Shown here piece by piece: positions 1,863-50,111 of a stretch of 64,000 nucleotides of DNA; the stretch's first letter is position 1, and every line of letters begins with the position of its first letter. This DNA is from an uncultured Dechloromonas sp. (GTDB lineage Bacteria > Pseudomonadota > Gammaproteobacteria > Burkholderiales > Rhodocyclaceae): the NCBI GenBank assembly GCA_964583695.1, contig CAZOWA010000012.1, positions 11,077 through 75,076 on the forward strand, in the 5' to 3' direction. The notes beneath the pieces were generated by a model, which was given only the letters and a program-made list of their open reading frames with translations, searched no databases and was not told the DNA's origin. The position numbers were made by a program, and so were the translations under genes.

Positions 1863-2335
1863 TGTTTTCTGCTGACACCCTTCAGAAGTTTGCTCGCGAG
1901 GTAGCCAAGTACCCCGCCGACCAGAAACAGTCGGCCGTCATGGCCTGTCTCGCTCACGCGCAGGAAGAAAAAGGCTGGCTGCCTCCCGAGGCGGTCGAAG
2001 CCGTTGCCAACTATCTCGGCATGCCGCCCATCGCGGCTTATGAGGTCGCTTCCTTCTACAACATGTACGACCTCAAGCCCGTCGGCAAGTACAAGATTAC
2101 CGTCTGTACCAATTTGCCTTGCGCGCTTTCCGGTGGTTATCACGCTGGCGAATATCTGCAGAAAAAGCTGGGTATTGGTTATGGCGAGACAACTGCCGAT
2201 GGCAAATTCACTCTCAAAGAGGGTGAGTGCATGGGGGCTTGCGGTGATGCACCGGTAATGATTGTGAATAACCGCAGCATGTGTAGTCACATGCTTCCGG
2301 AACAGATCGACAAGCTGATTGAGGAGCTCAAATAA
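1862..2335 (+). CDS. nuoE: NADH-quinone oxidoreductase subunit E (2Fe-2S)
   Basis: 157 aa with Cys motifs CTNLPC and CMGACGDAP. The start overlaps the nuoD stop (TGATG). Confidence 0.96.
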
Positions 2336-3663: not shown

Positions 3664-3714
3664 GCGAAATCCGCCGAGTGATAGATACGAAAGAACTGGC
3701 TACAAGGTAGCGAC

Positions 3715-6045
3715 ATGCTAGAAATTGAAATCGACGGCAAGAAGGCGCAAGTACCCGCGGGCAGCACGGTGATGGATGCCGCGCAGCAGGTGGGCGTGTA
3801 CATCCCGCACTTCTGTTATCACAAGAAACTCTCGATCGCCGCCAACTGCCGGATGTGTCTGGTCGAAGTCGAAAAGGCACCGAAGCCGTTGCCCGCGTGT
3901 GCGACGCCGGTTACCAATGGCATGAAGGTATTTACCCACTCCGACCTGGCCGTCAAGGCACAGAAAGGGGTGATGGAATTCCTGCTCATCAATCACCCGC
4001 TGGATTGCCCGATCTGCGATCAGGGCGGCGAGTGTCAGTTGCAGGATATGTCAGTCGGTTACGGCCCGATGAAGAGCCGCTATACCGAAGAAAAGCATGT
4101 TGTTTTCCACAAGAATGTCGGTCCGCTGATTTCCATGGAGGAAATGAGCCGCTGTATCCACTGCACCCGGTGTGTGCGTTTCGGCCAGGAAATCGCCGGG
4201 ATCATGGAACTCGGCATGGCGAACCGGAACATGCACTCCGAGATAACCACCTTCCTTGGGCGCACGGTTGACTCCGAATTGTCGGGCAACATGATTGATC
4301 TGTGTCCGGTGGGTGCGTTGACTTCGAAGCCTTTCCGCTACACCGCCCGCTCGTGGGAGTTGCAGCGTCGCAAGTCGGTGAGCCCGCACGATTCCGTGGG
4401 CGCCAATCTGGTGGTGCAGGTCAAGCACGATGCCGTGATGCGCGTCCTGCCGCGTGAGAACGAAGCAGTCAACGAATGCTGGATTTCCGACAAGGAACGC
4501 TTTTCCTATCAGGCACTGAATTCCGATGAGCGTCTGACCCGCCCGATGGTCAAGCAGGGTGGCGAATGGAAGGAAGTGGACTGGAATGTGGCGCTTGATT
4601 ACGTCGCGCACGCGCTCAAGGATGTCGTGCGTGATCATGGCGGTGACGCAATTGCAGCGCTGGCATCGCCTGCTTCTACCGTCGAAGAGATGTACCTGCT
4701 GGGCAAAGTGTTCAAGGCGCTGGGTAGCGGCAATGTCGATTTTCGTCCGCGCCAGCAGGATTTCGGCACCGACTTCAAGCGTGCCGGTACGCCTTGGCTG
4801 GGTCTTAAGCTCGCCGAGATCAAGGATCTGGATGCGGCTTTGGTCGTTGGTTCCTTCCTGCGCAAGGATCATCCACTGATCGCCCAGCGTTTGCGGCAGG
4901 CTGCGCGGAAATTCACCAAGGTCAGCCTCCTGTCCGTCACTGACGATGATCAACTCATGCCGATGCATGCCAGGCTGACGGTTGCGCCGTCGCAACTGGC
5001 GCAATCGCTGGCCGCAGTCGTCAAGGCTGCAGCCGAAATCAAGGGGCTTGCCGTTCCGGTCGGCCTGGAAAACGTCGCTGTCTGCGATACCAGCCGGAAA
5101 ATCGCAAAGAGTCTCATCGATGGCGAGAAGCGCGCCATTTTCCTCGGCAACGTCGCAGCCCAGTCGGCTCAGGCAACTCAATTGCACGTGCTCGCGCTTG
5201 AGCTCGGCAAGATTACCAACGCTACGGTTGGCTTCCTCGGCGAGGCAGCCAACGTGGTTGGCGGGCATGCAGCCTGGGCTCTGCCGTCCGGGGCCAATGC
5301 CCGGACGATGTTCGAGCAGCAGCGCAAGGCTTATTTCCTGCTCGGTGTTGAGCCTGAATTTGACTGCGCCAATCCACAACTGGTACTCGGTGCGCTGAAG
5401 CAGGCGGATACCGTGATTGTTGCGTCGGTGTTCAAGAATGCATCGGCGCTTGAGTACGCTGACGTGATCCTGCCGGTGGCGCCCTACACAGAAACGTCCG
5501 GTACTTTCATCAACACCGAAGGCCGTGTTCAGAGTTTCAATGGCGTCGTCAAGGCGCGTGGCGATGCGCGTCCGGCCTGGAAGGTGCTGCGCGTATTGGG
5601 TAACGTGCTGGCGCTGGACGGTTTCTCTCAGGATTCGAGTGAAGCGGTGCGCGATGAGGTTCTTGGCAAGGGTGTCGAATTCCTGCCCAATCTCGATAAC
5701 GGTCTGAACGGCGTGGCTATTTCCTTGCCGGCCGCCGTCGAGGGGCTGCAACGTATTGCCGATGTGCCGATCAATTTTGCCGATCCCATGGCCCGTCGTT
5801 CTCCCGCCTTGCAGCAGACTGCCGACGCGGTGGCTCCGGCTGCCCGCATCAATGAGCAGACTCTGGCCCAACTGGGTATTTCCTGCGGGGCGCAAGTACG
5901 TGTGAAACAGGGTAATGGCGAGGCGGTTCTGACCGCCAAGGGCGACAACAAGGTGCCGGTCGGCTGTGTCCGCGTTGCTGCGGCTCATGTCAGTACGGCT
6001 GCGCTGGGCGAGATGTTCGGCCCGATCTCCGTGGAGCGCGCATAA
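3715..6045 (+). CDS. nuoG: NADH-quinone oxidoreductase subunit G
   Basis: 776 aa with an N-terminal 2Fe-2S/4Fe-4S region (CYHKKLSIAANCRMCLVE, CPICDQGGECQLQD, CIHCTRCVRF) followed by a molybdopterin-like domain. Confidence 0.97.
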   Translation: MLEIEIDGKKAQVPAGSTVMDAAQQVGVYIPHFCYHKKLSIAANCRMCLVEVEKAPKPLPACATPVTNGMKVFTHSDLAVKAQKGVMEFLLINHPLDCPICDQGGECQLQDMSVGYGPMKSRYTEEKHVVFHKNVGPLISMEEMSRCIHCTRCVRFGQEIAGIMELGMANRNMHSEITTFLGRTVDSELSGNMIDLCPVGALTSKPFRYTARSWELQRRKSVSPHDSVGANLVVQVKHDAVMRVLPRENEAVNECWISDKERFSYQALNSDERLTRPMVKQGGEWKEVDWNVALDYVAHALKDVVRDHGGDAIAALASPASTVEEMYLLGKVFKALGSGNVDFRPRQQDFGTDFKRAGTPWLGLKLAEIKDLDAALVVGSFLRKDHPLIAQRLRQAARKFTKVSLLSVTDDDQLMPMHARLTVAPSQLAQSLAAVVKAAAEIKGLAVPVGLENVAVCDTSRKIAKSLIDGEKRAIFLGNVAAQSAQATQLHVLALELGKITNATVGFLGEAANVVGGHAAWALPSGANARTMFEQQRKAYFLLGVEPEFDCANPQLVLGALKQADTVIVASVFKNASALEYADVILPVAPYTETSGTFINTEGRVQSFNGVVKARGDARPAWKVLRVLGNVLALDGFSQDSSEAVRDEVLGKGVEFLPNLDNGLNGVAISLPAAVEGLQRIADVPINFADPMARRSPALQQTADAVAPAARINEQTLAQLGISCGAQVRVKQGNGEAVLTAKGDNKVPVGCVRVAAAHVSTAALGEMFGPISVERA

Positions 6046-8528: not shown

Positions 8529-10577
8529 ATGGAAATGCAAAAACTCTACTTGCTCGTACCCCTCGCTCCTCTGATTGGAGCGATGATTGCCGGTCTGTTC
8601 TGTCGAGTCATCCCGCGTTGGGTTGCGCACACGGCGACCATTGCCGGTGTCGGTATTGCCTTCGCGCTGTCCGTGATGATTTTCATGGATGTGCAAGCCG
8701 GCCACACGTTCAATGGCCCGGTTTACACTTGGCTGACCAGCGGCAAATACACCTTTGAAGTCGGCTTCCTGATCGACACGCTCACCACGACGATGATGCT
8801 GGTGGTCACCTTCGTGTCGCTGATGGTGCATATCTACACCATCGGGTACATGCAGGAAGACCCAGGTTACAACCGTTTCTTCAGCTACATCTCGTTGTTC
8901 ACCTTCTCCATGCTGATGCTGGTGATGAGCAACAACTTCATGCAGCTCTTCTTCGGCTGGGAAGCGGTCGGTCTGGTTTCCTATTTGCTGATCGGTTTCT
9001 GGTACACCCGTCCAACCGCCATCTTCGCCAACATGAAGGCCTTTTTGGTCAATCGCGTCGGCGACTTCGGCTTCATTCTCGGTATCGGTCTGGTGCTCGC
9101 CCATTTCGGTTCGCTCGATTACGCCACGGTGTTTGCCAAGGCGCCGGAATTGGCTGCAAAGACGATCAATATCTGGGGCTCGGCCGAGTGGTCGCTGCTC
9201 AGCGTCACCTGTATCTGCCTGTTCATTGGTGCCATGGGCAAATCTGCCCAGGTTCCGCTGCATGTCTGGCTGCCCGACTCGATGGAAGGCCCGACCCCGA
9301 TTTCCGCGTTGATCCACGCTGCAACCATGGTGACGGCCGGTATCTTCATGGTGTCGCGCATGTCGCCGCTGTTCGAGCTGTCGACCACCGCGCTATCTTT
9401 TGTCCTGATCATCGGCGCCATCACCGCCTTGTTCATGGGCTTCCTCGGCATCATCCAGAACGACATCAAGCGCGTCGTTGCCTACTCGACGCTGTCGCAG
9501 CTTGGCTATATGACTGTCGCGCTCGGCGCTTCCGCCTATTCGGTCGCCATCTTCCACCTGATGACGCACGCCTTCTTCAAGGCGCTGCTGTTCCTTGCCG
9601 CCGGTTCGGTGATTATCGGCATGCACCATGATCAGGACATTCGCAACATGGGCGGCCTGCGCAAGTACATGCCGATTACCTGGCTGACTTCGCTGGTTGG
9701 TTCCCTGGCCCTGATCGGTACGCCTTTCCTGTCCGGTTTCTACTCGAAGGATTCGATCATCGAGGCGGTGCAGTTCTCGCATATCCCGGGTGCCGGTTTC
9801 GCCTACTTTGCCGTGCTGGCCGGAGTTTTTGTCACCGCTTTCTATTCGTTCCGGATGTATTTCCTGGTGTTCCACGGTGAGGAGCGTTTTGGCAAGGCTG
9901 ATGATGCGCATCATCACGAGCATCATGGCGATCATGACGACGAAGAAACTTCGCACGACCATCATCACGGCCTCGCCCCCGGGCAAAAGCCGCACGAGAC
10001 GCCGTGGGTCGTTACCCTGCCGCTGGTTCTGCTTGCCATTCCTTCGCTGGCTATTGGTTTCTTCGCCATCGAACCCATGCTCTATGGCGAGTACTTCAAG
10101 GGCGTGATATTTGTGGATCACGAGGCGCATCCGTCGATGGAACACATGGCTGAGCACTTCCAGCACAATTTCCACGACGCGGTTGGCATGGCGCTGCACT
10201 CCTTCGTCACGCCGCCGTTCATCCTGGCGCTTTCCGGTGTGCTGCTCGCCTGGTTCTTCTACATGAAGCGCCCGGATATTCCGGCTGCCATCCAGCGCAG
10301 GTTCTCCGCCATCAATACGGTACTTGAAAACAACTATTACTTTGACAAGGTCAACGAAGCTGTTTTCGCCGGTGGTGCCCGCCTGCTCGGCAAGGTGCTC
10401 TGGCGTGGTGGCGATGTCGCCGTAATTGATGGGATTTTCGTCAATGGCGCTGCCAAGCTGGTTGGCTGGATCTCTTCCATCACCCGCCTGTTCCAGACGG
10501 GTTACGTCTATCACTACGCTTTCACCATGATCATCGGCGTCTTCGTGCTGATGACCCTGTGGATCAACCGTGCCTAG
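8529..10577 (+). CDS. nuoL: NADH-quinone oxidoreductase subunit L
   Basis: 682-aa antiporter-like subunit (WEAVGLVSYLLIGFW, SAQVPLHVWLPDSMEGPTP). It contains an unusual His/Asp-rich loop (see findings). Confidence 0.96.
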   Translation: MEMQKLYLLVPLAPLIGAMIAGLFCRVIPRWVAHTATIAGVGIAFALSVMIFMDVQAGHTFNGPVYTWLTSGKYTFEVGFLIDTLTTTMMLVVTFVSLMVHIYTIGYMQEDPGYNRFFSYISLFTFSMLMLVMSNNFMQLFFGWEAVGLVSYLLIGFWYTRPTAIFANMKAFLVNRVGDFGFILGIGLVLAHFGSLDYATVFAKAPELAAKTINIWGSAEWSLLSVTCICLFIGAMGKSAQVPLHVWLPDSMEGPTPISALIHAATMVTAGIFMVSRMSPLFELSTTALSFVLIIGAITALFMGFLGIIQNDIKRVVAYSTLSQLGYMTVALGASAYSVAIFHLMTHAFFKALLFLAAGSVIIGMHHDQDIRNMGGLRKYMPITWLTSLVGSLALIGTPFLSGFYSKDSIIEAVQFSHIPGAGFAYFAVLAGVFVTAFYSFRMYFLVFHGEERFGKADDAHHHEHHGDHDDEETSHDHHHGLAPGQKPHETPWVVTLPLVLLAIPSLAIGFFAIEPMLYGEYFKGVIFVDHEAHPSMEHMAEHFQHNFHDAVGMALHSFVTPPFILALSGVLLAWFFYMKRPDIPAAIQRRFSAINTVLENNYYFDKVNEAVFAGGARLLGKVLWRGGDVAVIDGIFVNGAAKLVGWISSITRLFQTGYVYHYAFTMIIGVFVLMTLWINRA

Positions 10578-10609
10578 CGCGAACAGTTCGCAGAAAAGCA
10601 AGGAATAAC

Positions 10610-12094
10610 ATGTCGACTTACCCGCTGCTATCTCTCGCCATCTGGATTCCGATCATTGCCGGTCTGGTGGTGCTCGCCACCGGCTCCGACCGGAATGCGC
10701 CGCTGGCCCGGATGCTCGCCCTGTTTGGCGCGCTTATCGGTTTTCTGGTGACCATCCCGCTTTGGACGGGCTTTGACACTGCCAACAGTGGCATGCAGTT
10801 CGTCGAGCTTGCCAACTGGATTCCGGGTCTGCGTATCAAATACCACCTTGGGGTGGATGGCATATCGATGCTGTTCGTTCTGCTCAATGCTTTCATCACG
10901 ATCATCGTCGTGGCCGCAGGCTGGGAAGTCATCAAGGAAAAGATTGCGCAGTACAACGCGGCCTTCCTGATTATGTCGGGTTTGATGAACGGCATCTTCA
11001 CTTCGCTCGATGGCATGCTGTTCTATGTTTTCTTTGAAGCGTCGCTGATCCCGCTCTATCTCATCATCGGTGTCTGGGGTGGTCCGAACCGCGTTTATGC
11101 CGCCCTGAAGTTCTTCCTCTACACCCTGTTCGGCTCTCTGCTTTTCCTGCTTGCGCTGGCCTATCTGTTCATCCAGTCCAACGGTAGCTTCTCCATCCTC
11201 GAATGGCACAAACTGCCGATCGCCATGGGGCCGCAGATCTGGTTGTTCCTCGCCTTCCTCATTGCCTTCGCCGTCAAGGTGCCGATGTGGCCGGTGCATA
11301 CCTGGTTGCCCGATGCTCACGTTGAAGCGCCGACCGGCGGTTCCATCGTGCTGGCTGCGATTGCCCTGAAGCTCGGCGCCTACGGTTTCCTGCGGTTTTC
11401 CCTGCCGATCGTGCCGGATGCCTCGCATCAACTGTCCTGGCTGGTCATTGCGCTGTCGCTGATTGCCGTGGTTTATATTGGCTTCGTCGCCCTGGTTCAG
11501 GCCGACATGAAAAAGCTGGTCGCCTATTCATCCATCGCGCACATGGGTTTCGTTTCCCTCGGCTTCTTCATGTTCAGCCCGATGGGGATCGAAGGTGCGC
11601 TGGTCCAGATGGTTTCCCACGGTTTCGTTTCAGGCGCCATGTTCTTCTGTATCGGCGTCATGTATGACCGTGTGCATAGCCGCCAGATCGCCGATTACGG
11701 CGGTGTGGTGAATACCATGCCCAAGTTCGCTGCCCTGTTCATGCTGTTCTCGATGGCTAACGCGGGCCTGCCGGCGACTTCCGGCTTCGTCGGCGAGTTC
11801 ATGGTCATTCTCGGTGCCGTCGAATACAACTTCTGGGTCGCCTTTGCCGCCGCAACCTCGCTGATCATCGGTGCCGCCTACACCCTGTGGATGTACAAGC
11901 GGGTGATCTTCGGCAACGTCACCAATCATCATGTCGAGGAACTCACCGACATCAATTTGCGCGAGTTCGCCATCCTTGGCGTGCTGGCCATCTGTACCCT
12001 CTTGATGGGCCTGTATCCCCAGCCCTTCACCGAAGTCATGCACGCCTCGGTCAACGAGCTGCTGAACCACGTCAATATCAGCAAGATTCAATAA
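10610..12094 (+). CDS. nuoM: NADH-quinone oxidoreductase subunit M
   Basis: ORF 10559-12094; the likely start is the ATG at 10610 (MSTYPLLSLAIWIPI). Antiporter-like subunit with VPMWPVHTWLPDAHVEAPT. Confidence 0.95.
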   Translation: MSTYPLLSLAIWIPIIAGLVVLATGSDRNAPLARMLALFGALIGFLVTIPLWTGFDTANSGMQFVELANWIPGLRIKYHLGVDGISMLFVLLNAFITIIVVAAGWEVIKEKIAQYNAAFLIMSGLMNGIFTSLDGMLFYVFFEASLIPLYLIIGVWGGPNRVYAALKFFLYTLFGSLLFLLALAYLFIQSNGSFSILEWHKLPIAMGPQIWLFLAFLIAFAVKVPMWPVHTWLPDAHVEAPTGGSIVLAAIALKLGAYGFLRFSLPIVPDASHQLSWLVIALSLIAVVYIGFVALVQADMKKLVAYSSIAHMGFVSLGFFMFSPMGIEGALVQMVSHGFVSGAMFFCIGVMYDRVHSRQIADYGGVVNTMPKFAALFMLFSMANAGLPATSGFVGEFMVILGAVEYNFWVAFAAATSLIIGAAYTLWMYKRVIFGNVTNHHVEELTDINLREFAILGVLAICTLLMGLYPQPFTEVMHASVNELLNHVNISKIQ

Positions 12095-14273: not shown

Positions 14274-14852
14274 TCAGGGGGTGGCTTTGGCGATCATTAG
14301 CAGGCCGGAAAAGGTAGCCCGAGCCGCGCTGAGTGCCTGCTCATGGGTTTCCGGTAGTGATAGTGACTTATCAAGGTGTTGCATGAGCTGGCTCCAACCA
14401 CTTTCGGCATCAGTCTGTCTGGCCAGTGTATTGAGAAAGGAAAAGTCCGCGACCGGTTTCCCGAAGTGCTGAGAGAGATGCGCACATATCTGGCGTGAAC
14501 CGTGTCGCGACCCTTCTACCACGTAAAGCACCCCGGCGATGTTGGCGATGGTCGCCAGTGGCAACGAGAACCCTGACTCCGGCCCTAGCGATGTGCAGGA
14601 ATCTCCAAGTTCGGCAACAAGCAGGGGAAGTCGCGGCAGATAAGGGTAGCCCGCATTCAGCGCACCTGCGGCGAGCCGTTGCTGCAAGCTGTTCTCAAAG
14701 CCCAGATAAAAACGGTACATTACTTTCAGAAACAGCCGATAGTTGGCCGGTGTAACCGAGGGGGTCATCAGCCCACAGAAAGGTGCACTCTTCTCGAGCA
14801 CGGCGTGTTCCAGGCGCAATGCCTGACGGAAGCGGTTCAGCGCCTCAGACAT
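14274..14852 (-). CDS. bphO: Heme oxygenase-like protein (biliverdin-producing, BphO-type)
   Basis: ORF 14274-14861; the ATG at 14852 overlaps the phytochrome stop by 8 nt (ATGTCTGA). Size is about 190 aa and it sits directly downstream of a bacteriophytochrome. Sequence similarity to the heme oxygenase family is recalled, not computed. Confidence 0.7.
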   Translation of the reverse strand: MSEALNRFRQALRLEHAVLEKSAPFCGLMTPSVTPANYRLFLKVMYRFYLGFENSLQQRLAAGALNAGYPYLPRLPLLVAELGDSCTSLGPESGFSLPLATIANIAGVLYVVEGSRHGSRQICAHLSQHFGKPVADFSFLNTLARQTDAESGWSQLMQHLDKSLSLPETHEQALSAARATFSGLLMIAKATP

Positions 14853-16308
14853 GTTCGGCAAATTCGAGCAGCAGTTCGCGAAGCTTCAGGGCCAGCAAGC
14901 GGGATTCATTGTTCCAGGGACGGCTGCTTCCCAGTCGTTTCTCTACCCAGCGTTCGAATGAGCGCCGCGGTGCAATGCCAAACTCTCCATCGTGATACTC
15001 AACGGGCTTTTCCGGGTTCCCTCCCCAGGCGATTTCGTGCACATATTCCTGGCGGGTGAGATAAACCAGCAGGAATTCGCGTTCCGATATCCTGACTTTT
15101 ACGGCCAGCAGCCCGGCAACTTCGGACAGGCCGAAGTCGGGAATTTGTTGCGACAGGCACTCACCCATCCAGATCGATTCAAGCGGTCGCGTCTGAAGCC
15201 AGGCATCGATTGCGGCAAGTTGCCCGGAACCGAGCTCCAGGCCCCAGCTTGCCGTTTCATCGCCAAATTGAAGGGTGGCGCCATCCGCCTCGAATTCCCG
15301 GGCCAGCCAAGCACCAATGTTACCGGGCCAGGCCGAGAACAGATTGCCGGATGCGTAAATCATGGTGCGGATATCGGAAAATCGCCTTGCCAGGCCGTCA
15401 ACCAGTTGAATTCTGCGCTGAGCCCAGTAAGAAGCGAGAGCGATCGAGTGCTGCTTCACCTCCTGCGCAATCGTCTCGAGCTGGCGCCTCGACAACATGG
15501 TGGGTTCCGGGTGGTGACAGGCAATCAGCCCCCAGAGATCCTGACCTATCTGAATGGGGAAAGAGAGCGAAGAGAGAACGCCCATGTTGGCCAGATACAG
15601 CTGGTGAACCGGTGAAACGCTACGTAGGTCGCTGTAGCTCAGATCGGGCGGCTCGTGGCCTTCCCGAAAGAGCAGGGATACCGGCCGGGCCTGCGCGTCC
15701 GGAATGAAACGCCAGGGATTCAGGCGATACAGAGTCCGGGCAATTTGCGGAATATCGCTGGCGGGGAAACGCAGACCGAGATAACTGCCATAGATGCCTT
15801 GCTGGCGTTTCTCGGCAATAACCTCGCCATCGCCATCTTCCCTGAAGCGGTAGTACAACACTCGTGGAAATTCGGATATGTCGGCAATTTTGGCTACCAG
15901 TGCGTTCTGGCGCTCGGCAATCGCCGCCTCATTGATCGGTGTGCCAATTTCCTGGGAAGTATTGGAATATATCCTGTCCCAGGCTATGTTTTGCGTGATT
16001 TCGATGATCGCCTGCCCGCCAGCATTGCGGCTGAGCGCTATGTCAAGCTGGCCTCTCGCTGTTGATGACGTGCCGAATTCGAGCCTGCTGCCCGGCTGTT
16101 CCGGGAGCGATTGCAACCAGCCGAGGAAAGGTTCAGGTGGTGTGGCGCCGAGGCGGAAGTGCGAAGTATCGAGCCATTCACCCATATTCTCGGAACAGGC
16201 TGTGAGCAGGCCTTCTCGACAGCATACAAGCAGTACGCCGTGAGGCTGAATGGCTGCTGAAAGGTGGAGCGCTTCCTTTTCACAACTATCGATGAAGCGC
16301 TTATCCAT
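14845..16308 (-). CDS. bphP: Bacteriophytochrome photosensory core (PAS-GAF-PHY) with no output domain
   Basis: The ATG at 16308 gives 487 aa. Motifs: N-terminal Cys (IDSCEKEALHLSAAIQPHGVLLV), RFPASDIPQIARTLY, SPVHQLYLANMGV, LWGLIACHH, and PHY tongue WGGNPEKP with PRRSFERW. The protein ends right after the PHY C-terminal helix. Confidence 0.9.
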   Translation of the reverse strand: MDKRFIDSCEKEALHLSAAIQPHGVLLVCCREGLLTACSENMGEWLDTSHFRLGATPPEPFLGWLQSLPEQPGSRLEFGTSSTARGQLDIALSRNAGGQAIIEITQNIAWDRIYSNTSQEIGTPINEAAIAERQNALVAKIADISEFPRVLYYRFREDGDGEVIAEKRQQGIYGSYLGLRFPASDIPQIARTLYRLNPWRFIPDAQARPVSLLFREGHEPPDLSYSDLRSVSPVHQLYLANMGVLSSLSFPIQIGQDLWGLIACHHPEPTMLSRRQLETIAQEVKQHSIALASYWAQRRIQLVDGLARRFSDIRTMIYASGNLFSAWPGNIGAWLAREFEADGATLQFGDETASWGLELGSGQLAAIDAWLQTRPLESIWMGECLSQQIPDFGLSEVAGLLAVKVRISEREFLLVYLTRQEYVHEIAWGGNPEKPVEYHDGEFGIAPRRSFERWVEKRLGSSRPWNNESRLLALKLRELLLEFAEHV

Positions 16309-19300
16309 GGGTGATGCTCGCCAGCAAGTCCTCGAATGCCGCCGCCTCCATCGGACGCGAGAGGTAGTAGCCCTGCAGTACGTCACAGCCATGCTTTTCA
16401 AGCCAGATGCGCTGTACCTCGGTTTCAACACCCTCGGCGACCGAGCGCAGGTTCAGGGTGCTGGTCAGGCTGAGTATGGCCATCGTGATTCCCTCATCGT
16501 CGCTGTCCTGTCCGAGCCCATCGACAAAACTCTTGTCGATTTTTAGCTCCGATATCGGCAAGCGCTTCAGGTAGGAGAGCGAGGAATAGCCTGTGCCAAA
16601 ATCATCAACGCTGATCTGGATACCATGCTCATGGAGTTCGGCAAGATTGTCGATGACGGCAGAACTGCTCTCGAGCAAGGCGTCCTCGGTGATTTCGACA
16701 CCGATCAGAGCCGGGGGGACACCCATTTCCTGTGCCATCCGGATGATTTCCGTGCCTGCGCCGGCCTCTCTCATGATTCGCGGCGAGCAGTTGAAAGCGA
16801 TTGGCGGCGGGTTGAGTCCGAGCTTCAGCCAGGTGGCAAGATGGGAGAACAGCAACTCCTGAACCCGCCGGGTCACTTCGCCGATTAGTCCGCAAGCCTC
16901 GCCGATCGGGATGAACTCGCCCGGCGGAATGTCGCCAAGTTCCGGGTCGCGCCAGCGCAGCAAGGCTTCGGCGCCCAGCAACTGGCGAATTTTTCCGGCG
17001 CAGAACTTGGGCTGGAATACGAGTCGCAGGCGATTCTGGTTGAGTGCAGCGCGCAGGGCGCTTTCCATGGTCGCACGCCGGAGCAGGCGAACATGCAGGT
17101 CGGGCAGGAAAAACTCGACACGATTGCGACCCAGTTCCTTGGCCCGGTACATCGCTGAATCCGCTGCTTTCAGTAGGGCCACGCTATCCTTTCCATCTTC
17201 CGGATAGAAGGCGACGCCGACGCTGGCGGAGACAAACAGCTGGCGATCATGGATATTGAACGAGGCGCCGAGTTCGTCAATGATTCTGCGAGCTACCAGG
17301 TGAGCCATCTGTTCGTTGCACTCAGACAGGATGGCAGTGAACTCGTCACCACCCAGACGGGCAACCGTGTCGATATCACGCATGACTTGCTGGAGGCGGT
17401 TTGCGACCTGCTTGAGCAACTCGTCACCAACATCGTGGCCGAGCGTATCGTTGATGTCCTTGAAGTTGTCGAGGTCAATGAACATCAACGCAACGCGCTC
17501 ATTCTTGCGACGTGCCTGCGCCAGCGCATGACGCAGGCGGTCCTGAAGGAGCGTACGGTTGGGAAGGCCGGTCAGAGCGTCATGGGCTGCGAGATATTCG
17601 GCCTTGCGCTGGGCATTCTTGATATCGGTGATATCGGAAAAGACGGCCACGTAATGCTCGATGGCCCCGTTTTCGTTGTCGACCCGGTTGATGGTCAGCC
17701 ATTCAGGATAAACATCGCCATCTTTACGGCGGTTCCAGATTTCACCCTGCCAGAAACCGTGCTCATTCAAACTGTCCCACATGGACTGGTAGAAATCCTT
17801 GCTGTGCCGCCCCGACCTGACCAGTTCGCCGATCGGGCGCCCCTTTGCCTCCGGTAGCGTATAGCCGGTTATCCCGGTAAAGGCGCGGTTGGTGGTCTGG
17901 ACTACTCCGGACGGGTCGGTGACGACGATCGCTTCCCCTGCATGATCGAACACCTTGGCAGTAATCCGCAGTTGATCCTCGGCTTCGCGGCGAGCTGAAA
18001 TATCTTCGGCTTCCATGGTCAGCGCCACCGGATTGCCATCAGCATCGAAAAGGGTCTGGTGAATTGCGTGCAGGTGCCGGACGCGGCCACCCTGTTCGAG
18101 GGAGTGTTCCGAAGTGATCGCTGTACGGGTACGCAGGGAGCTTACCGAGCTCTCCCAGAATGAAGCAGCAATTTCCGGCGGCAGGATGGCAAAATCCGTT
18201 TTCCCGATTACGTCGGCTTCCTGGAGGTCGAAAAATTCGAGAAAACGGTGATTCGCGTACAGATAGGCGCCGTAGATGTCACGCATCGCGAAAATTACCG
18301 TCGTATGGGCCATCAGCGAAGTCAGGCGCTGTTCCGACTCGAACAGGGCATTCTGTGCCACGACGATGTCGGTGACGTCCAGCATGCTGACTACCAGTGT
18401 GGAAACATCGCCAATCGCATTCAGTCCGGGCATGACGTTGACGCGAACGCTTCGCTCCCCGAATCTGACCATGGCATGTTCGGGCTCTCCGTGCGCCAGG
18501 GCATGCCCCATCCACAGGCTCATTCCCGCCAGCTCTTCTGGTAGCTTCAGGCTGTTCAGATGGTGCCGGATGGCTGACGGGCGCAGGTCGAACTTGCGGG
18601 CGGCAGGGGCGTTGAAGCGGACGAGTTGCATCGCCCGGTCGAAAACAAGCACCGGGAATTCGAGCGCATCGTAAAGGTGGACGTATTCCTCAGAGAGCTT
18701 CGACAGCTCCATGGTCTTGACGTTGAGCTCCTCGTTCAGGCTGACCAGTTCTTCATTGGTTGCCTGCATTTCCTCGTTGGCAGCTTCAAGTTCCTCATTG
18801 GTCGCCTGCAATTCCTCGTTGGATGCCTGAGCCTCCTCGTTCAGCGCCTGCATTTCCTCATTTGCTGTTGCCATTTCTTCAACCAGAGCCTGAAGATGCT
18901 CGCGAGTCGCCATCAACTCGTCTTCAAGCACCTCGCTGGCCGAAGAGGGGGACTCATCGGCAGCTTCCTCCGCCAATGTCTCGGGCACAAAGAGCACAAC
19001 CAGGAAATTGCCGCCAGCTTCGCGCACTGGCTGCATCATGATGCGTAGAAGGGCTTTGGCGACACGCCGACGCCTTCCTCGCTGGGGCTTTCCGGTCTGC
19101 TGGCAGCGTCGCTGAAGCGTGAATACCTCGCTACGCAATTCGGGCAGGATGACATCGCCGAGATTGAGGCGTGAGGTCCCCTGCGGAAACTGGAGAAAAC
19201 GCTCTACCTCGCCAATGCTGTGCAATACGTTGCCGTCGTTGTCGCAAAGCACCGCCGTGGCATTGAATTGAGACAGCAGGCCGGAAACCAGAATCTCGAA

Positions 19301-20761
19301 GCTCTGGTCACGGCGCTGGATCGGAAGGTGACGGGTTATTCCGTGGGTGGCCATTGGCAGAACGGCCGAATCGCCGACCTTGTAAAAAAGCCGTTCCTTC
19401 CGGTCCACCGCGGAAAAAAGTTGTTCCGCTTGCGTGACGCTTTCCGAGCGCCCGAGGAAGAGATAGCTTTCCTTGTAAAGACCGAAATGGAAGGTTTGCA
19501 ATACCTTGCTTTGCAAGGGCGCATCGAAGTAAATCAGGACGTTGCGGCAGGAAACCAGATCAAGACGCAGGAAGGGCGGGTCGCTGACCAGGTTGTGTCG
19601 GGCAAAGACGATCATGTCACGCAAGGTCTTGCCTGCCTCATACGCGTTACCGGCGGGACGGAAATAGCGCCTGAGCAGTTCTTCGGGAATCTCGGTCATC
19701 GATGCTGCCGGATACACCCCCCGGCGCGCAACGTTGAGCGCATCTTCATCGACATCGGTGGCGAAAATCTGGACGCGATGGCTCGCCAGTCGCTCCTGCA
19801 AGGCTTCGGCAAGAAGAATCGCGATCGAATAGGCTTCTTCACCGCTGGCGCAGCCGGCTACCCAGATCCGGATTTCGCTGCCGGGAGATTTCTTTCTGGT
19901 TATTTCCTTCACGGCACTGTTCAGCGCAGCGAACGCGTCCCGATCACGGAAAAACGCTGTGACGGAAATGAGAATGTCCCGGGCCAGGAATTCCAGTTCG
20001 TCCGGATGTGCCTCGATGAATCGTACGTACTCAGCCAGGTCGACAGACTGTGTAGCCGCCTGCCTGCGCCGTATGCGTCGCAGGAGCGTACCCGTCTTGT
20101 ATCCGGAAAAATCGAATTTCAGGCGCTCACGCAGTTGCACCATCAACTGCTTGTAGAGGTCGGCGGGTGGGTTTTCCGTATCGCCCTCGGACTGGGCGTG
20201 CAGCAGCAGATCCGAAATCTGCCTGGCAATCATGTCTGGTGGCAGGATGTGATCGGCAACACCGGCTTCGATGGCGGCCCTGGGCATGCCGTCGTATTTT
20301 GCTGTTTCTGGCTGTTGCACGAGCGTGAAGCCACCAGCAGCCTGAATCGCGCGCAGGCCGGCCGTGCCGTCCGAACCCGTTCCGGAGAGAACGACGCCAA
20401 TGGCTGATTCGCCTTCTTCGCTGGCCAGCGAAATCAGAAACTGATTGACCGAGGGCTTAGGCACCACTTCCGGGGAGGCTGCCGTCAGGACCAGATGACC
20501 ATCCTTGTACAGGGCGTTGGAATTGGCTGGGACGACGTAGATCACACCGGCCTCCGGAACATCGCCTTGTTCCAGTTCCTTAACTCTCAGTGTGGTTTCC
20601 CGACCGAGGATCTCCACCATCATGCTGCGGTAATTGGGCGACAGGTGCTGGAGAACGACGTATGCGCATGGCGTATCGATCTTGAGGGCACCGACGAGCT
20701 GAGTGATTGCCTCCAGCCCCCCAGCTGAAGCACCGATACCGGCTACATGCACCTTGGTCAT
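16301..20761 (-). CDS. CheB-like methylesterase / CheR-like methyltransferase / coiled coil / PAS / GGDEF / EAL multidomain protein
   Basis: 1486 aa. Motifs: GASAGG (CheB), [17 protein letters not shown] (CheR SAM site), NEE(L/M) heptad coiled coil, PAS regions, RDID-5aa-GGDEF, and [15 protein letters not shown] and EGVE (EAL). The stop lies 2 nt before the bphP ATG. Confidence 0.9.
   Translation of the reverse strand: [1486 protein letters not shown]
18724..18870 (-). repeat. 21-nt periodic coding repeat (heptad coiled coil)
   Basis: About seven units spaced 21 nt apart (TTCCTCGTTGG / TTCCTCATTGG on the + strand). They encode [48 protein letters not shown]. Confidence 0.7.
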
Positions 20762-20782
20762 GCGACTCCCCTTTTTTTGGGC

Positions 20783-20811
20783 AGTATATTTTTAACCTCG
20801 AAGCCTCGCAA
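20783..20811 (-). promoter_or_regulatory. Candidate sigma-70 promoter for the CheB/CheR-GGDEF-EAL operon
   Basis: On the minus strand: TTGCGA (20811-20806), a 17-bp spacer, then TATACT (20788-20783), about 20 nt upstream of the ATG at 20761. This is a pattern match only. Confidence 0.3.
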
Positions 20812-20858: not shown

Positions 20859-22772
20859 TCAGAATTCCTTTAGCTTGCGGTACAGGGTTTGCCGACTGAT
20901 GCCCAGCTGACGTGCAGCTGCCGAGAGATTTCCGCGCGAGTTTTGCACCGCGCCCTGTATCGCCGAGCGCGACAGTTCGGCGAGGTTGGTTGGGGAGGGG
21001 GCTCGGGGAGCGGGAGACGACTTGGCAACGGCAAGTTCGTCGACCAAGTCATCCGGCAGATGCTGCCATTCGATGCGCTGCTCGCCTTCGTCGAGCATGG
21101 CGACGGCGGTACGCAGCACATTGGCGTACTGGCGAAGGTTGCCCGGCCAGCGGTAGGCGGCGAGGGCGGCGAGCAATTCGGGGGCTACATGCAAACCGTG
21201 GTCCGGCAGCAGTTCCTGCAGCAGCTTGTCGGTGAGTGCCGGGAAATCGCTGCGCGAACGCAGGGAAGGCAGATTCAGGGTGAGACCGTTGATGCGGTAG
21301 TAGAGATCGCTGCGGAAACGCCCGTTTTCGGATGCTTCGCGCAGGTTGTGGTGGGTGGCGCAGATCAGGGCGAAATTGACGGGGATGGCCTGTCCGCCAC
21401 CGAGCGGCGTGACCTGGCGCTCCTGCAACACGCGCAGCAGGCGGGTTTGCATGCCGAGCGGCATGTCGCCGATTTCATCGAGGAACAGGGTGCCGCCATC
21501 TGCCTCACGCAGGCGGCCGACCATGCCTTCCTTGCGGGCGCCGGTGAAGGCGCCGGGGGCGTAGCCAAATAGTTCGGCTTCAATGAGGTTTTCGGGGAGG
21601 GCGGCGCAGTTGATGGCGACGAAGGGGCCGGCGCGTTGCGGTGAAATGTCATGCACGCCGCGTGCGAAAAGCTCCTTGCCGACGCCGGATTCGCCATGCA
21701 GGAGCAGGGGGATCGGCTTGCCGGCGATGCGCCGTGCCTTGTCCGCCGCCGAGCGCCACTGGCTGTCGCCGGTATCCAGTCGTGACAGGGCATCGCCGGA
21801 CGGATTGACGGCGACTTTGGGTGGTGTGTTGCTGATCAGCGGGCGCGCCTCGGCGAAGACCTGTCCATAGATCGGCGTGCCGTCGTGACGGTGCAACAGG
21901 ATGGCTTGCTGCGGTCGCCGGCGGGCGAGGGTGAGAATCTGTTCGAGCGGCAGATCAAGGGCGCGGAAAATCGGGGTGGCGCCAATGTCAGCCGTCGACA
22001 GACCGAGAAATTTCAGGGCATTGCGGTTCGCACCGATGATCCAGCCATCGTCGGAGAGCGCGACGATGCCCTCGGCCACGCTGCCGATCCCTTCCGGACG
22101 GTTATGCAGGTGCAGGCGGATGTGGCGTCGGCAGGCATCGGCGACTAGCCGGTTTTCGATCATGCGGGCGGCGGTATTGACCAGCCCCAGTGTGTGCGGA
22201 TGGCGGCTGCGCTGGTCGCCGGAAATGTCGAGGATGCCGAGCAGTTCGCCGGTGGCGGAGACGATGGGGGCGGCAGCGCAGGTCAGGAAGCCGTTGCGTT
22301 CGAGAAAGTGTTCGGCGCCGTGAATTTCCACCCCTTCGGCTTCGGCCAGGGCGGTTCCGATGGCGTTCGTGCCGCGTTGCTGTTCGTGCCAGCAGGCGCC
22401 GGACATGAGCGCAACTCGTTCCGCCTTGCCGAGGAAATCCATGTCGCCCAGGGTGTGCATAAGTACGCCCCGGTTGTCCGCCAGAATGACCATGCTGTGG
22501 CTGTGCCGGACCTGCTCGAAGAGATATTCCATGACTGGCCGCGAATGGCTGACCAGGTCGTGGTTGCGGGCGAGCGAGCGTTGCAGCTCGGGGCCCGAGA
22601 GGTTGTCGCCACCGGCCAGCCGGCCCACCGGGGAAAGCCCCGCCGCAAGGCTGCGCTGCCAGGAACGGGCAAGGCGTTCGTCAAGGGTGCCAAACGCAAT
22701 CTCGCTGCCTTCCAGCAGCTGATTCCGGGCCTGGCGCAGCGCCGGCGGCAATGCGGGGGAATGGGTGTACAT
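20859..22772 (-). CDS. Sigma-54-dependent transcriptional activator (AcoR type)
   Basis: ORF 20859-23057; the likely start is the ATG at 22772 (MYTHSPALPP), giving 637 aa. It has an N-terminal GAF-like sensor, AAA+ motifs GESGVGKE and GAFTGA, and a C-terminal Fis-type HTH (AARQLGISRQTLYRKLKE). Confidence 0.88.
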   Translation of the reverse strand: MYTHSPALPPALRQARNQLLEGSEIAFGTLDERLARSWQRSLAAGLSPVGRLAGGDNLSGPELQRSLARNHDLVSHSRPVMEYLFEQVRHSHSMVILADNRGVLMHTLGDMDFLGKAERVALMSGACWHEQQRGTNAIGTALAEAEGVEIHGAEHFLERNGFLTCAAAPIVSATGELLGILDISGDQRSRHPHTLGLVNTAARMIENRLVADACRRHIRLHLHNRPEGIGSVAEGIVALSDDGWIIGANRNALKFLGLSTADIGATPIFRALDLPLEQILTLARRRPQQAILLHRHDGTPIYGQVFAEARPLISNTPPKVAVNPSGDALSRLDTGDSQWRSAADKARRIAGKPIPLLLHGESGVGKELFARGVHDISPQRAGPFVAINCAALPENLIEAELFGYAPGAFTGARKEGMVGRLREADGGTLFLDEIGDMPLGMQTRLLRVLQERQVTPLGGGQAIPVNFALICATHHNLREASENGRFRSDLYYRINGLTLNLPSLRSRSDFPALTDKLLQELLPDHGLHVAPELLAALAAYRWPGNLRQYANVLRTAVAMLDEGEQRIEWQHLPDDLVDELAVAKSSPAPRAPSPTNLAELSRSAIQGAVQNSRGNLSAAARQLGISRQTLYRKLKEF

Positions 22773-22919
22773 CGGTCTCGTCTCCTCGGGCAGGTCGTTG
22801 CCTGCTTTTTTGCCGAGTATAGAGACTGTCCTCAGTGACGCAATAGTTGTCCGAAGAAATGTTGCACAAGTGTTCCATTTTGAGACAGGTGTCACCTTGT
22901 GGAGCGTTGCAGTGATTGC

Positions 22920-22958
22920 TGCGGTCAACCTGAAAATTTGGCAAAAAAACGGAAAATC
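22920..22958 (+). repeat. Dispersed repeat family, half copy B
   Basis: TGCGGTCAACCTGAAAATTTGGCAAAAAAACGGAAAATC lies in the intergenic region between the activator and the aldehyde dehydrogenase. Confidence 0.75.
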
Positions 22959-22984
22959 AATGGGTTGTGGCTCGTGTTTCAGGC

Positions 22985-23000
22985 TGGCACGACCCTTGAT
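22985..23000 (+). promoter_or_regulatory. Sigma-54 (-24/-12) promoter candidate
   Basis: TGGCAC-GACCC-TTGAT lies about 60 nt upstream of the aldehyde dehydrogenase ATG, divergent from a sigma-54 activator. The -12 element reads TTGA rather than TTGC. Confidence 0.55.
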
Positions 23001-23058
23001 ATAGGTAATGGCCCGCAAGGGAATCAATTTACCCATTCGTAAAATATCAGGAGACAAA

Positions 23059-24579
23059 ATGATCTACGCTGCCCCCGGTGCCGCAGGTGCCAAGATTGCT
23101 TTCAAAGCCCAATACGACAACTACATCGGCGGCCAGTGGGTCGCTCCGGTCAAGGGTGAATACTTCGATGTGGTGACGCCGGTCAACGGCAAGGTGTATA
23201 CCAAGGCCGCCCGTTCGACGGCCGAAGATGTCGAACTGGCGCTCGATGCCGCCCACGCTGCTTTCCCGAAATGGGGCAAGACCGACGCCGCCACCCGCTC
23301 CAACATTCTCCTGAAAATCGCCGACCGTCTCGAACAGAACCTCGAACTGCTCGCCTATGCCGAAACCGTCGACAACGGTAAGCCGATCCGCGAAACGCTG
23401 GCTGCCGACATTCCGCTCGCCGTCGACCACTTCCGCTACTTTGCCGGAGCCCTGCGTTCGCAGGAAGGTGGCATCTCGGAAATCGACGAAAACACCATGG
23501 CGTACCACATCCATGAACCGCTCGGTGTCGTCGGCCAGATCATTCCCTGGAACTTCCCCATCCTGATGGCCGCCTGGAAGCTGGCTCCTGCACTGGGCGC
23601 CGGCAACTGTGTGGTGTTGAAGCCTGCCGAATCAACCCCGATCTCCATCCTGATCCTGATGGAACTGATCGCCGACCTCTTGCCGCCGGGTGTGCTCAAC
23701 ATCGTCAACGGCTACGGCCGCGAAGCCGGCATGCCGCTCGCCACCAGCAAGCGCATCGCCAAGATCGCCTTCACCGGCTCCACCACCACTGGCCGCGTCA
23801 TCGCCCAGGCGGCTGCCAACAACCTGATTCCGGCGACGCTGGAACTGGGCGGCAAGTCGCCCAACATCTTCTTCGCCGACGTCATGGACAAGGATGACGG
23901 CTTCCTCGATAAAGCCATCGAAGGCCTGGTGCTGTTCGCCTTCAATCAGGGCGAGGTCTGTACCTGCCCGAGCCGCGCCCTGATTCAGGAATCCATTTAC
24001 GAAAAGTTCATGGAAAAAGCCCTCAAGCGCGTTGCAGCGATCAAGCAAGGTTCGCCGCTCGATACCGACACCATGATGGGTGCCCAGGCATCGCAGATCC
24101 AGATGGAAAAGATCAAGTCCTACCTGCAACTGGGCAAGGATGAAGGCGCTGAATGCCTGATTGGCGGCGATGTTGCCAAGCTGGGCGGTGATCTTGAAGG
24201 TGGCTACTACATCCAGCCGACGCTCTTCAAGGGCCACAACAAGATGCGCATCTTCCAGGAAGAAATCTTCGGGCCGGTGCTCGCCGTCACCACCTTCAAG
24301 GACGAAGCCGAAGCACTTGCCATCGCCAACGACACGCTCTACGGCCTCGGCGCCGGCGTGTGGAGCCGCAATGGCAACGTCGCCTACCGCATGGGCCGCG
24401 CCATCCAGGCCGGCCGCGTCTGGACCAACTGCTACCACGCCTATCCCGCGCACGCCGCCTTCGGTGGCTACAAGGAATCGGGCATCGGTCGCGAAACCCA
24501 CAAAGTGATGCTCGATCACTACCAGCAAACCAAGAACCTGCTGGTCAGCTACACCGAGCAGAAACTGGGCTTCTTCTAA
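23059..24579 (+). CDS. NAD-dependent aldehyde dehydrogenase (acetaldehyde dehydrogenase II type)
   Basis: ORF 23008-24579; the ATG at 23059 follows AGGAGA and gives 506 aa. Motifs ELGGKSP and [12 protein letters not shown] (catalytic Cys) are present. Confidence 0.95.
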
Positions 24580-25126: not shown

Positions 25127-25756
25127 CTACTCGGCGACTGCGCCCAACAGACGAAAAGCAGCATTTGCCCCCGGCGGAATGCTCGAAATCTGCTCGAAGC
25201 GGTAATGCGCCTTGAGCGCCTCGCGCACACTGTCGGTCACCAGGATTTCTCGTGCCTTCGCGATATCCTCGCCGAGTTTCGCTGCGGCATTGACTTCGCT
25301 GCCGTAGGCGTCACGGTCGCCGATCCTGAGCAACTGGCCGAAACCGAGTCCGATGCACAGCCGGATCTGCTCGGCTTCTTCCTTCTCGACGTTATAAATG
25401 GTGCAGGTCTTCTGCATGCTCAAGGCGCATTCGATTGCCTTGGTGACATTCCTGAAAATGACCATCATGCTGTCGCCGTCCATTTTCAGCAGAATGCCGT
25501 CGAAGCCGTCGATGCAGGGAATTAGCAGGCGCTGCGACTCCTGGATGATCTGCAAGAAGTGAATGATCCCGAAGGACGCCACGCCACTTGAGAACCCGGA
25601 CAGGTCGGTAAACATCACCGCCCACTCCTCGCCAAACAGATCCCAGATGCGCTGATCAATCGCCGCCTTGTCGCTCCCGGGCAGGAGGCGTTCATTGATC
25701 AGTTTTTCCAGGCGGTCTTCGGAGGCATGCAGGCCGATGTTGTGGGCGTAGGTCAT
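25127..25756 (-). CDS. Minimal class III nucleotidyl (adenylate/guanylate-type) cyclase
   Basis: 209 aa. Metal-binding Asp motifs FTDLSGFS and KMDGDSMMV, and GSEVNAAAKLGED in place of the usual GxxVNxAARLE. No recognisable sensor domain. Confidence 0.82.
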   Translation of the reverse strand: MTYAHNIGLHASEDRLEKLINERLLPGSDKAAIDQRIWDLFGEEWAVMFTDLSGFSSGVASFGIIHFLQIIQESQRLLIPCIDGFDGILLKMDGDSMMVIFRNVTKAIECALSMQKTCTIYNVEKEEAEQIRLCIGLGFGQLLRIGDRDAYGSEVNAAAKLGEDIAKAREILVTDSVREALKAHYRFEQISSIPPGANAAFRLLGAVAE

Positions 25757-50000: not shown

Positions 50001-50111
50001 ACTTTTGAAGGCGAGCCCGAACAGAACGAGAAGAACGAGCAACACCAGGCTGACCGGGAGCAGAACTTGTTGCTTCAGGCGGAAACGGCCAGTGGGCTGC
50101 ATAGAATTCAT
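47007..50111 (-). CDS. Hybrid sensor histidine kinase / response regulator (periplasmic sensor, PAS, GAF, HisKA, HATPase, REC)
   Basis: 1034 aa: an N-terminal TM helix, a periplasmic region of about 300 aa, a second TM helix, then PAS and GAF. Motifs: H-box [28 protein letters not shown], and [17 protein letters not shown]. Confidence 0.92.

Follow-up and report, generated by a model that had tools for sequence, protein, structure and literature searches.

A 64,000-nucleotide stretch of DNA from an uncultured Dechloromonas sp. (contig CAZOWA010000012.1; the whole stretch is called the window below) carries on its minus strand three tightly packed genes, identified from the open reading frame (ORF) list and its translations. 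In order, they encode a large CheB-CheR-PAS-GGDEF-EAL protein (here the megaprotein), a bacteriophytochrome that consists of the photosensory module, and a heme oxygenase. The three genes probably form one operon, whose products would make up a two-piece red/far-red sensor for second-messenger signalling. The pairing of sensor and megaprotein genes is not a one-off but is widespread, being present in more than 60 other bacterial species, and this points to a widespread two-piece system of light signalling. The elements of the operon are as follows.

16301-20761, minus strand: megaprotein gene, 1486 aa, CheB-CheR-PAS-like-coiled coil-three PAS-GGDEF-EAL.
14845-16308, minus strand: gene for the stand-alone bacteriophytochrome photosensory module (PAS_2-GAF-PHY), 487 aa from the ATG at 16308.
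14274-14852, minus strand: heme oxygenase gene, BphO/HemO type, 192 aa.
16308-16301, minus strand: junction 1, ATGGATAA, phytochrome start and megaprotein stop, 8-nt overlap, read in the sequence.
14852-14845, minus strand: junction 2, ATGTCTGA, heme oxygenase start and phytochrome stop, 8-nt overlap, read in the sequence.
20766-20771, minus strand: Shine-Dalgarno sequence GGGGAG, 4 nt 5′ of the megaprotein ATG, read in the sequence.

Both junctions are 8-nt overlaps of a start and a stop codon, in agreement with the translational-coupling geometry that an earlier note on this DNA had described for the three genes. The overlap of the phytochrome stop with the heme oxygenase ATG, also claimed there, is read directly in ATGTCTGA. 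At the other junction the note had the coordinates right but placed the megaprotein stop 2 nt before the phytochrome ATG, which is wrong: on the coding strand the ATG (16308-16306) is upstream of the stop (16303-16301) and the two ORFs overlap by 8 nt. Of the three genes, only that of the megaprotein is preceded by a strong ribosome-binding site, an arrangement that fits coupled translation and matched stoichiometry.

Homology identifies the 487-residue protein as a complete biliverdin-type photosensory module, with an attachment cysteine, an intact chromophore pocket and a PHY tongue, and with no enzymatic output. Pfam recognises PAS_2 (29.8 bits), GAF (37.6 bits) and PHY (93.1 bits) in this order, all above the gathering scores, and the sequence matches in the PDB are PaBphP, Agp1 and Agp2 at E values of about 1e-55 (best 1.5e-55). 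Cys9, in IDSCEKEALHLSAAIQPHG (codon 16282-16284), lies N-terminal to the PAS domain, fits the biliverdin thioether motif C-E-x-E-x-[IL]-H and is invariant in a family alignment (22/22 sequences). The same alignment shows no variation at D185 and P187 of the DIP motif, at S232 and H235 of SPVH, at H265 (the second His of ACHH) or at P447, R448, S450 and F451 of the PRRSF tongue. Hence the hallmarks of a biliverdin-binding core listed in the earlier note (N-terminal Cys, DIP, SPVH, PRRSF) are present, and their key residues are those that the family keeps. In a wider set of 80 loci from species-representative genomes, DIP is found in 80/80 and the tongue motifs PRxSF and W(G/A)G in 78/80 and 79/80, respectively. 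An AlphaFold2 (AF2) model (predicted local distance difference test score, pLDDT, 81.3; predicted template modelling score, pTM, 0.73; low confidence in the tongue, aa 426-454) was matched by Foldseek to 5lly, 5i5l, 9euy, 6g1z and 3c2w, with template modelling (TM) scores of 0.7-0.8 and E values of about 1e-35. The top structural match is 5lly, the photosensory module of PadC. Two other assignments were considered and rejected. A "bathy" type (Pfr dark state) cannot be read from the nearest structures, since the best matches mix bathy PaBphP and Agp2 with canonical Agp1. An alternative start at GTG-16431 would yield an extension that only overlaps the EAL-coding region, and the N-termini of homologues align with MDKRF.

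The missing output domain, and nothing else, might suggest that a mutation in this genome has cut short a canonical phytochrome of the histidine-kinase type. The reading frame closes 36 residues past PRRSF, and a Pfam scan of the protein found no HisKA/HATPase or other kinase domain. Against NF041576, the NCBIfam model for canonical BphP sensor histidine kinases, the protein scores 163.6 bits where 1040 are required and covers only profile positions 145-502. Its relatives have the same form. The best 120 database homologues measure 386-511 aa (480-511 aa for all but a few fragmentary entries) and contain PAS_2, GAF and PHY only, except for one 488-aa match that also has PAS_4; none of the 120 has a kinase or GGDEF domain. 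All of the relatives in the 80 loci (80/80) end 1-30 residues past the alignment end; they are 481-515 aa long in all, of which 31-50 residues follow the tongue motif, and the end point is thus shared. Downstream of the phytochrome gene in the window there is neither a kinase-like gene nor a kinase remnant, the next gene being an intact heme oxygenase. Pfam and the reading of the flanks therefore bear out the earlier statement that the phytochrome stops at 487 aa without kinase, GGDEF or downstream remnant. The earlier note had also reckoned with orthologues that run on into a kinase; the 120 homologues and 80 genome relatives include none. Judged by homologue lengths and domain content, the truncation reading is refuted, and we assign it practically no probability. 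In a neighbour-joining tree the 81 stand-alone proteins group apart from two phytochromes with an output that occur in these loci, a weak separation with only these two outgroups; identity is at least 32% within the stand-alone group and 25-32% to the outgroups.

The third gene product is borderline in Pfam as a heme oxygenase (23.5 bits, the cut-off being 23). A profile built from 13 orthologues matches, over the full length, Neisseria HemO (1j77, E=4.5e-24) and pa-HO of Pseudomonas (1sk7, E=1.9e-18). His16 and Y110-x-x-E113-G114 are invariant among the orthologues, S115 is kept in at least 90% of them, and the distal-helix motif reads YVVEGSRHG (family YVxEGS). His16 is likely to be the proximal heme ligand. 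Homology thus shows a HemO/BphO-type enzyme, which would be expected to make biliverdin from heme. A jackhmmer search placed its gene directly 3′ of the sensor gene in at least 42 of the 70 loci with room for it; the order with bphO last, which had been thought unusual, is the family norm. A separate observation concerns a Rhodospirillales metagenome-assembled genome (MAG), where a 931-aa canonical phytochrome-histidine kinase is encoded directly 3′ of the stand-alone sensor (L070:11474-14269, plus strand). The C-terminus of this kinase resembles a fused heme oxygenase domain (YVIEGAAMGG; jackhmmer E=2.4e-44 with the heme oxygenase family), an unusual fusion of sensor, kinase and chromophore synthase.

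The megaprotein is built from the following parts.

20216-20740, minus strand: CheB methylesterase, aa 8-182, with no receiver in front; Pfam CheB_methylest E=6e-54; GASAGG Ser, QHL His, GSDG Asp.
19400-20155, minus strand: CheR_N and CheR (S-adenosylmethionine-binding), aa 203-454; Pfam E=2e-55; GCASGEE motif.
18980-19318, minus strand: PAS-like alpha/beta domain, aa 482-594, undetected by Pfam; AF2 pLDDT 78-90, tandem-PAS matches in Foldseek.
18665-18940, minus strand: single 92-residue helix, aa 608-699, candidate methyl-accepting coiled coil; AF2, NEE(L/M)(Q/E)A(T/S/A) heptads.
17624-18652, minus strand: three PAS domains (PAS_10, PAS_4, PAS), aa 704-1046; Pfam, with AF2 for the first.
17120-17590, minus strand: GGDEF diguanylate cyclase domain, aa 1058-1214; Pfam E=1e-54; GGDEF intact, RDID I-site 5 residues upstream.
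16352-17059, minus strand: EAL phosphodiesterase domain, aa 1235-1470; Pfam E=1.4e-59; EALLR and DDFGTG intact.

All four enzymatic domains (CheB, CheR, GGDEF, EAL) look functional by their motifs. GASAGG and GC(A/S)(S/T)GEE occur in the window protein and are kept by those orthologues whose N-terminus is intact. QHL and GSDG of CheB were read in the window translation and are near-invariant in a 34-sequence alignment; all of these CheB and CheR assignments are at motif level only. The window protein and nearly all of some 60 orthologues have GGDEF, the RxxD I-site, EAL(L)R and DDFGTG. Among the PAS domains, PAS_10 (aa 696-797) scores 19.8 bits in the window, just under the 22.1-bit cut-off, and is annotated in many orthologues; the best stretches for PAS_4 and PAS are aa 823-926 and 937-1044 (Pfam). 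An AF2 model of aa 455-830 built from 34 sequences (pLDDT 83) was matched by Foldseek to tandem-PAS proteins. PpsR N-Q-PAS1, one of these matches, resembles the modelled PAS-long helix-PAS segment at low TM score, which makes it a lead only. The best 120 clusters of megaprotein orthologues are 52-93% identical to the window protein and 1280-1551 aa long, the shortest being annotated as partial. Of the two proteins the megaprotein changes at the lower rate: it is 93% identical to its counterpart in the closest relative, against 85% for the sensor, and the corresponding values for Azonexus are 69% and 51%.

The association of the two proteins was surveyed by tblastn of the window domains against the 80 loci. 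A full CheB-CheR-coiled coil-PAS-GGDEF-EAL gene lies directly upstream of the sensor gene, on the same strand, in 61 of them, which answers the earlier note's call for a survey of co-occurrence. Three further loci are consistent with an upstream megaprotein but are cut by the contig end; in two, from Skermanella, the megaprotein gene is directly downstream of the sensor; in another two (L024, L070) a CheB-CheR-PAS-HisKA-HATPase-REC protein is encoded upstream in its place, and two were too short to score for a partner. The 66 stop-to-start distances that could be measured comprise 23 overlaps, 16 of them of -8 as in the window, and 31 gaps of 0-30 nt, so that 54/66 junctions overlap or leave at most 30 nt. 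The hosts belong to the Betaproteobacteria (Azonexus, Dechloromonas, Parazoarcus, Thiobacillus, Nitrosomonas, Gallionella, Rhodoferax), the Gammaproteobacteria (Methylomonas, Halomonas/Vreelandella, Marinobacterium, Nitrincola) and the Alphaproteobacteria (Paramagnetospirillum, Skermanella, Magnetospira). The best named relatives are in Azonexus and other Rhodocyclales-type Betaproteobacteria (sensor 51%, megaprotein 69% identity), and the closest of all are metagenome contigs (GCA_048222695.1, Logan ERR12717845 and ERR12717846). Operon contigs labelled as Actinomycetota, Mycobacterium and Klebsiella pneumoniae MAGs (L025, L047, L080) are probably binning errors and not true hosts.

Natural fission variants were also found. 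In Rhodoferax (L086, 5001-11612) a CheB-CheR-PAS gene (1112 aa) and then a GGDEF-EAL gene (355 aa) precede those of the sensor (491 aa) and the heme oxygenase (193 aa), and the megaprotein is similarly split in L027 and L034; such loci could guide domain-dissection experiments. With histidine kinase (HK) outputs in two loci and a separate GGDEF-EAL gene in some others, what stays constant in the partner is CheB-CheR-coiled coil-PAS and not GGDEF-EAL.

We postulate that the sensor acts in trans. The heme oxygenase would supply it with biliverdin made from heme, and conversion between the red- and far-red-absorbing states (Pr/Pfr) would change its binding to a dimeric CheB-CheR-PAS-coiled coil-PAS3-GGDEF-EAL protein. 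The contact would most likely be on the CheB-CheR/PAS/coiled-coil half rather than on the catalytic domains, because this half is constant while the outputs vary. Altered binding would then shift the balance between cyclic di-GMP (c-di-GMP) synthesis by GGDEF and hydrolysis by EAL, or kinase activity in the HK-type partners. That the biliverdin-loaded sensor binds its partner non-covalently and that its Pr/Pfr state sets the balance of c-di-GMP synthesis and hydrolysis, or kinase activity, is the reading that we favour, and we regard it as reasonably probable. Light sensor and c-di-GMP enzyme are, as the earlier note had it, separate polypeptides: they are separate ORFs in all relatives, with no fusion in 120 clusters. 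The main inference of that note survives every in-silico test available and is supported.

Several points weigh against this interpretation. We infer both the sensor-megaprotein complex and the light control of c-di-GMP turnover from sequence. The remaining 10 of the 80 loci have no adjacent CheB-CheR gene; in one of them (L034) a split gene for CheR-coiled coil lies at some distance upstream, and several adjoin another kinase or GGDEF protein. A concatenated 1973-aa query detected no sensor-megaprotein fusion among the best 120 megaprotein clusters, none of which has a PHY domain, and a Rosetta-stone argument for direct contact is thus missing. No phytochrome lies within 5 kb of P0127, a CheB-CheR-HK homologue that is 61% identical over the first 813 aa, and the CheB-CheR module is accordingly not dedicated to phytochromes. 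As GGDEF and EAL both look active, the sign of the response is unpredictable, and the three PAS domains could bring in other, dominating signals. An exclusive clade of phytochrome-linked CheB-CheR modules, irrespective of output, is not supported, since P0127 (61%, HK type) is without a phytochrome over that distance and the more distant P0152 (45%) has one.

Some of these observations would also be accounted for if the genes were co-transcribed without direct coupling, the phytochrome signalling to an unlinked partner such as a transcription factor or a chemotaxis component, in the manner of RpBphP1 and PpsR2, while the megaprotein follows signals of its own PAS domains. The genes would then travel together only as parts of the same physiological programme. 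The lack of a fusion and the ten partnerless loci agree with this, as do the sensors whose neighbours are signalling proteins of another kind (histidine kinases in L035, L073 and L074, a transmembrane-PAS-GGDEF protein in L029) and the phenotype reported for the Magnetospirillum phytochrome MmBphP, said to be one of phototaxis, which need not run via c-di-GMP. Nonetheless, the overlapping stop/start adjacency is kept across Alpha-, Beta- and Gammaproteobacteria, down to a sensor identity of about 34%, and the differing neighbours are still signalling enzymes, which suits a detachable sensor able to dock on an output protein. We consider the absence of coupling unlikely. L073, a 16-kb Sulfuricella contig, holds three phytochrome-type genes (22-5779, 10001-11446): one for a PHY-PAS-GGDEF-EAL fusion resembling BphG1, one for a phytochrome of 881 aa that has an output, and one for a stand-alone sensor, with the gene of a PAS histidine kinase in front of it.

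The sensor might alternatively serve no light response in vivo and inform the megaprotein of the supply of biliverdin or heme, or of the redox state. The tight linkage of the heme oxygenase gene would suit such a role, and many of the host genera are non-phototrophic, some living in dark habitats (sediment, groundwater and wastewater bacteria, according to record titles). The photochemistry residues and tongue motifs are strongly conserved over the 80 loci, as seen above, and MmBphP is reportedly photoreversible; both argue against this role, which we hold to be very improbable.

The most conserved 50-residue block of the megaprotein is not catalytic. It lies in the long helix, at about 651-700 (mean column identity 0.79), and nearly all invariant columns of segment 455-830 in the 34-sequence alignment fall within the helix. 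AF2 predicts one continuous helix over 608-699, with pLDDT of about 54 at the first residues and 84-97 beyond the first turns. Its glutamate pairs (635/636, 642/643, 649/650, 656/657) are invariant in the alignment, which includes CheB/CheR fusions only 34-36% identical over aa 455-830 (P0152, P0163, P0220). The classical methylation consensus of chemoreceptors is Glu-Glu-X-X-Ala-Ser/Thr, and the NEE(L/M)(Q/E)A(T/S) heptads of the megaprotein match it (EExxA(S/T)); the same polypeptide carries the CheR methyltransferase and the receiver-less CheB esterase. Heptad-spaced runs of at least two motifs were found in 84 of 120 CheB/CheR fusion homologues, whatever their output. This helix, whose likeness to methylation sites the earlier note overlooked, is a candidate methyl-accepting coiled coil.

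A second and more speculative layer of the mechanism can be envisaged, in which the CheR and CheB domains would methylate and demethylate the EE pairs of the megaprotein's own helix. By methylating itself the protein would reset its output once the light has changed, in the way known from chemoreceptors in chemotaxis. The megaprotein would then be a soluble, self-contained "receptor with memory", with CheR and CheB adapting their own 92-residue helix and the phytochrome docking on it, to give an adapting c-di-GMP or phosphorelay output. We put this forward tentatively and think it somewhat doubtful. The idea rests on a short repeated motif and the presence of CheR and CheB; the Pfam MCPsignal model gave no match on the megaprotein at E<=0.01, and the AF2 helix is single and continuous, unlike the hairpin of chemoreceptors, which places it outside the four-helix bundles of methyl-accepting chemotaxis proteins (MCPs).

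Methylation could also be the signal itself and not a means of adaptation, if the light state of the phytochrome controlled the access of CheR and CheB to the EE heptads and the methylation level of the helix were passed on to GGDEF-EAL or to the kinase. Such gating would make sense of a partner whose invariant portion is CheB-CheR-coiled coil-PAS whatever the output and whose coiled coil is its most conserved segment; moreover, a CheB without a regulatory receiver domain needs some other control of demethylation. This proposal shares the assumption that the helix accepts methyl groups, and CheB/CheR fusions with the same heptad array occur without an adjoining phytochrome, so the array needs none. 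We judge it distinctly improbable and retain light-dependent, non-covalent binding of the sensor to the megaprotein as the preferred reading.

The stand-alone sensor type has one characterised member, MmBphP. In Magnetospirillum magneticum AMB-1 this protein reportedly binds biliverdin via Cys14, Arg240 and His246 also mattering for binding; it is said to lack the usual C-terminus, to be photoreversible and to affect phototaxis. Two Paramagnetospirillum sensors (L060 and L063), when read from MTTLSM, have Cys, Arg and His at exactly positions 14, 240 and 246, in line with the numbering reported for MmBphP. Both fall into the stand-alone clade of the window protein, to which they are about 37% identical, and both are encoded directly downstream of a CheB-CheR-PAS-GGDEF-EAL gene. 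In the table of a review MmBphP is listed as PAS-GAF-PHY only, with a pointer to Chen et al. 2020 (FEMS Microbiol Lett 367:fnaa142). The literature searched, thin in subscription journals, contained no account of a phytochrome paired with a CheB-CheR-GGDEF-EAL partner and no functional study of CheB/CheR fusion proteins.

BphG1 of Rhodobacter sphaeroides and PadC of Idiomarina sp. likewise couple red/far-red input to c-di-GMP enzymes. In these proteins, however, the C-terminal helix of PHY runs covalently into GGDEF or GGDEF-EAL, whereas sensor and enzyme are separate here in every orthologue examined, and the enzyme, unlike BphG1 and PadC, also carries CheB, CheR and a heptad-repeat helix. 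By its predicted make-up, the system is thus different from BphG1/PadC-type fusions, being split and having in addition CheB, CheR and a methylation-motif helix. Other photoreceptors act on separately encoded effectors by contact, with a logic like that proposed for the window system: AppA on PpsR and RpBphP1 on PpsR2. In Rhodopseudomonas palustris the BLUF protein PapB regulates the EAL protein PapA by contact, c-di-GMP hydrolysis being the target. The BLUF examples differ from the window sensor in chromophore and fold, and RpBphP1 keeps a PAS/PAC-HOS output module while the window phytochrome has none.

On the adaptation side, sensory rhodopsin is a separate photoreceptor that docks on a methyl-accepting transducer (Htr) adapted by CheR and CheB, and the Wsp pathway is a signalling route, likewise adapted by CheR and CheB, whose last member is a diguanylate cyclase. 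Both are arrays in the membrane that use CheA and CheW and in which CheR and CheB are proteins of their own; in the window, by contrast, a single soluble polypeptide combines the methyltransferase, the esterase, the candidate acceptor helix and the c-di-GMP enzymes, and neither CheA nor CheW is encoded near the operon. The megaprotein is a member of the family annotated by JGI as "two-component system CheB/CheR fusion protein" (CheB_methylest, CheR_N, CheR, PAS_10, NEELQxx heptads). This family numbers 7971 homologues at E<=1e-20, with no output, kinase, GGDEF or GGDEF-EAL, and the phytochrome-linked GGDEF-EAL branch is one sub-group of it.

Phytochrome signalling is known almost wholly from covalent outputs, with a fused kinase or cyclase that is twisted or splayed by the PHY helix. 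The present family, large and conserved, always has its photosensory module as a protein of its own; this raises the question of how the same photochemistry is read in trans, and sensor and partner would be a natural light-controlled protein-protein pair for near-infrared optogenetics. For the CheB/CheR fusion family, with its about 8000 matches, the phytochrome link supplies a known and controllable input, which makes both the function of these proteins and their self-methylation directly testable. If true, a self-methylating receptor would extend chemotaxis-type methylation adaptation beyond chemoreceptor arrays, and CheB/CheR fusion proteins, in their thousands, would gain a function for the first time. 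In ecological terms, many Beta-, Gamma- and Alphaproteobacteria that are not phototrophic could use the system to make their choice between biofilm and motility depend on red/far-red light, among them Azonexus, Dechloromonas, Thiobacillus, Nitrosomonas, Methylomonas, Halomonas/Vreelandella and the magnetospirilla.

The surroundings of the operon are unrelated to it. On the 3′ side the heme oxygenase gene is followed by a convergent NUDIX gene and then by nuoN and the nuo operon; on the other side are a sigma-54 activator gene and a divergent aldehyde dehydrogenase gene. Independent gene calls in an 85%-identical metagenome relative show the same three genes with the same neighbours; the heme oxygenase call there starts 25 nt past the phytochrome stop, as compared to the 8-nt overlap in the window. 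A scan of the region for terminators gave none that was convincing, and a promoter scan gave 1 match against 2.5 expected by chance.

20783-20811, minus strand: candidate sigma-70-type promoter TTGCGA-17-TATACT, in the 97-nt gap 5′ of the megaprotein gene; only match of the motif scan, weak, indicative of a position only.

Some features of the wider window may be mentioned. By longest-ORF calls, the GAF/sigma-54 activator ORF (20859-23057, minus strand, 732 aa from a TTG) overlaps the aldehyde dehydrogenase ORF (23008-24579, plus strand) at their 5′ ends; the activator is 637 aa long in the relative's gene call, and its start in the window is therefore probably further downstream. Between the aldehyde dehydrogenase locus and a ribonucleotide reductase gene lies a 209-aa ORF (25127-25756, minus strand) resembling a stand-alone class III adenylate/guanylate cyclase (Pfam Guanylate_cyc, E=6e-9). 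Finally, the window also encodes a large multi-sensor hybrid histidine kinase of 1034 aa (47007-50111, minus strand; dCache_3-PAS-GAF-HisKA-HATPase-REC), which has no relation to the operon.

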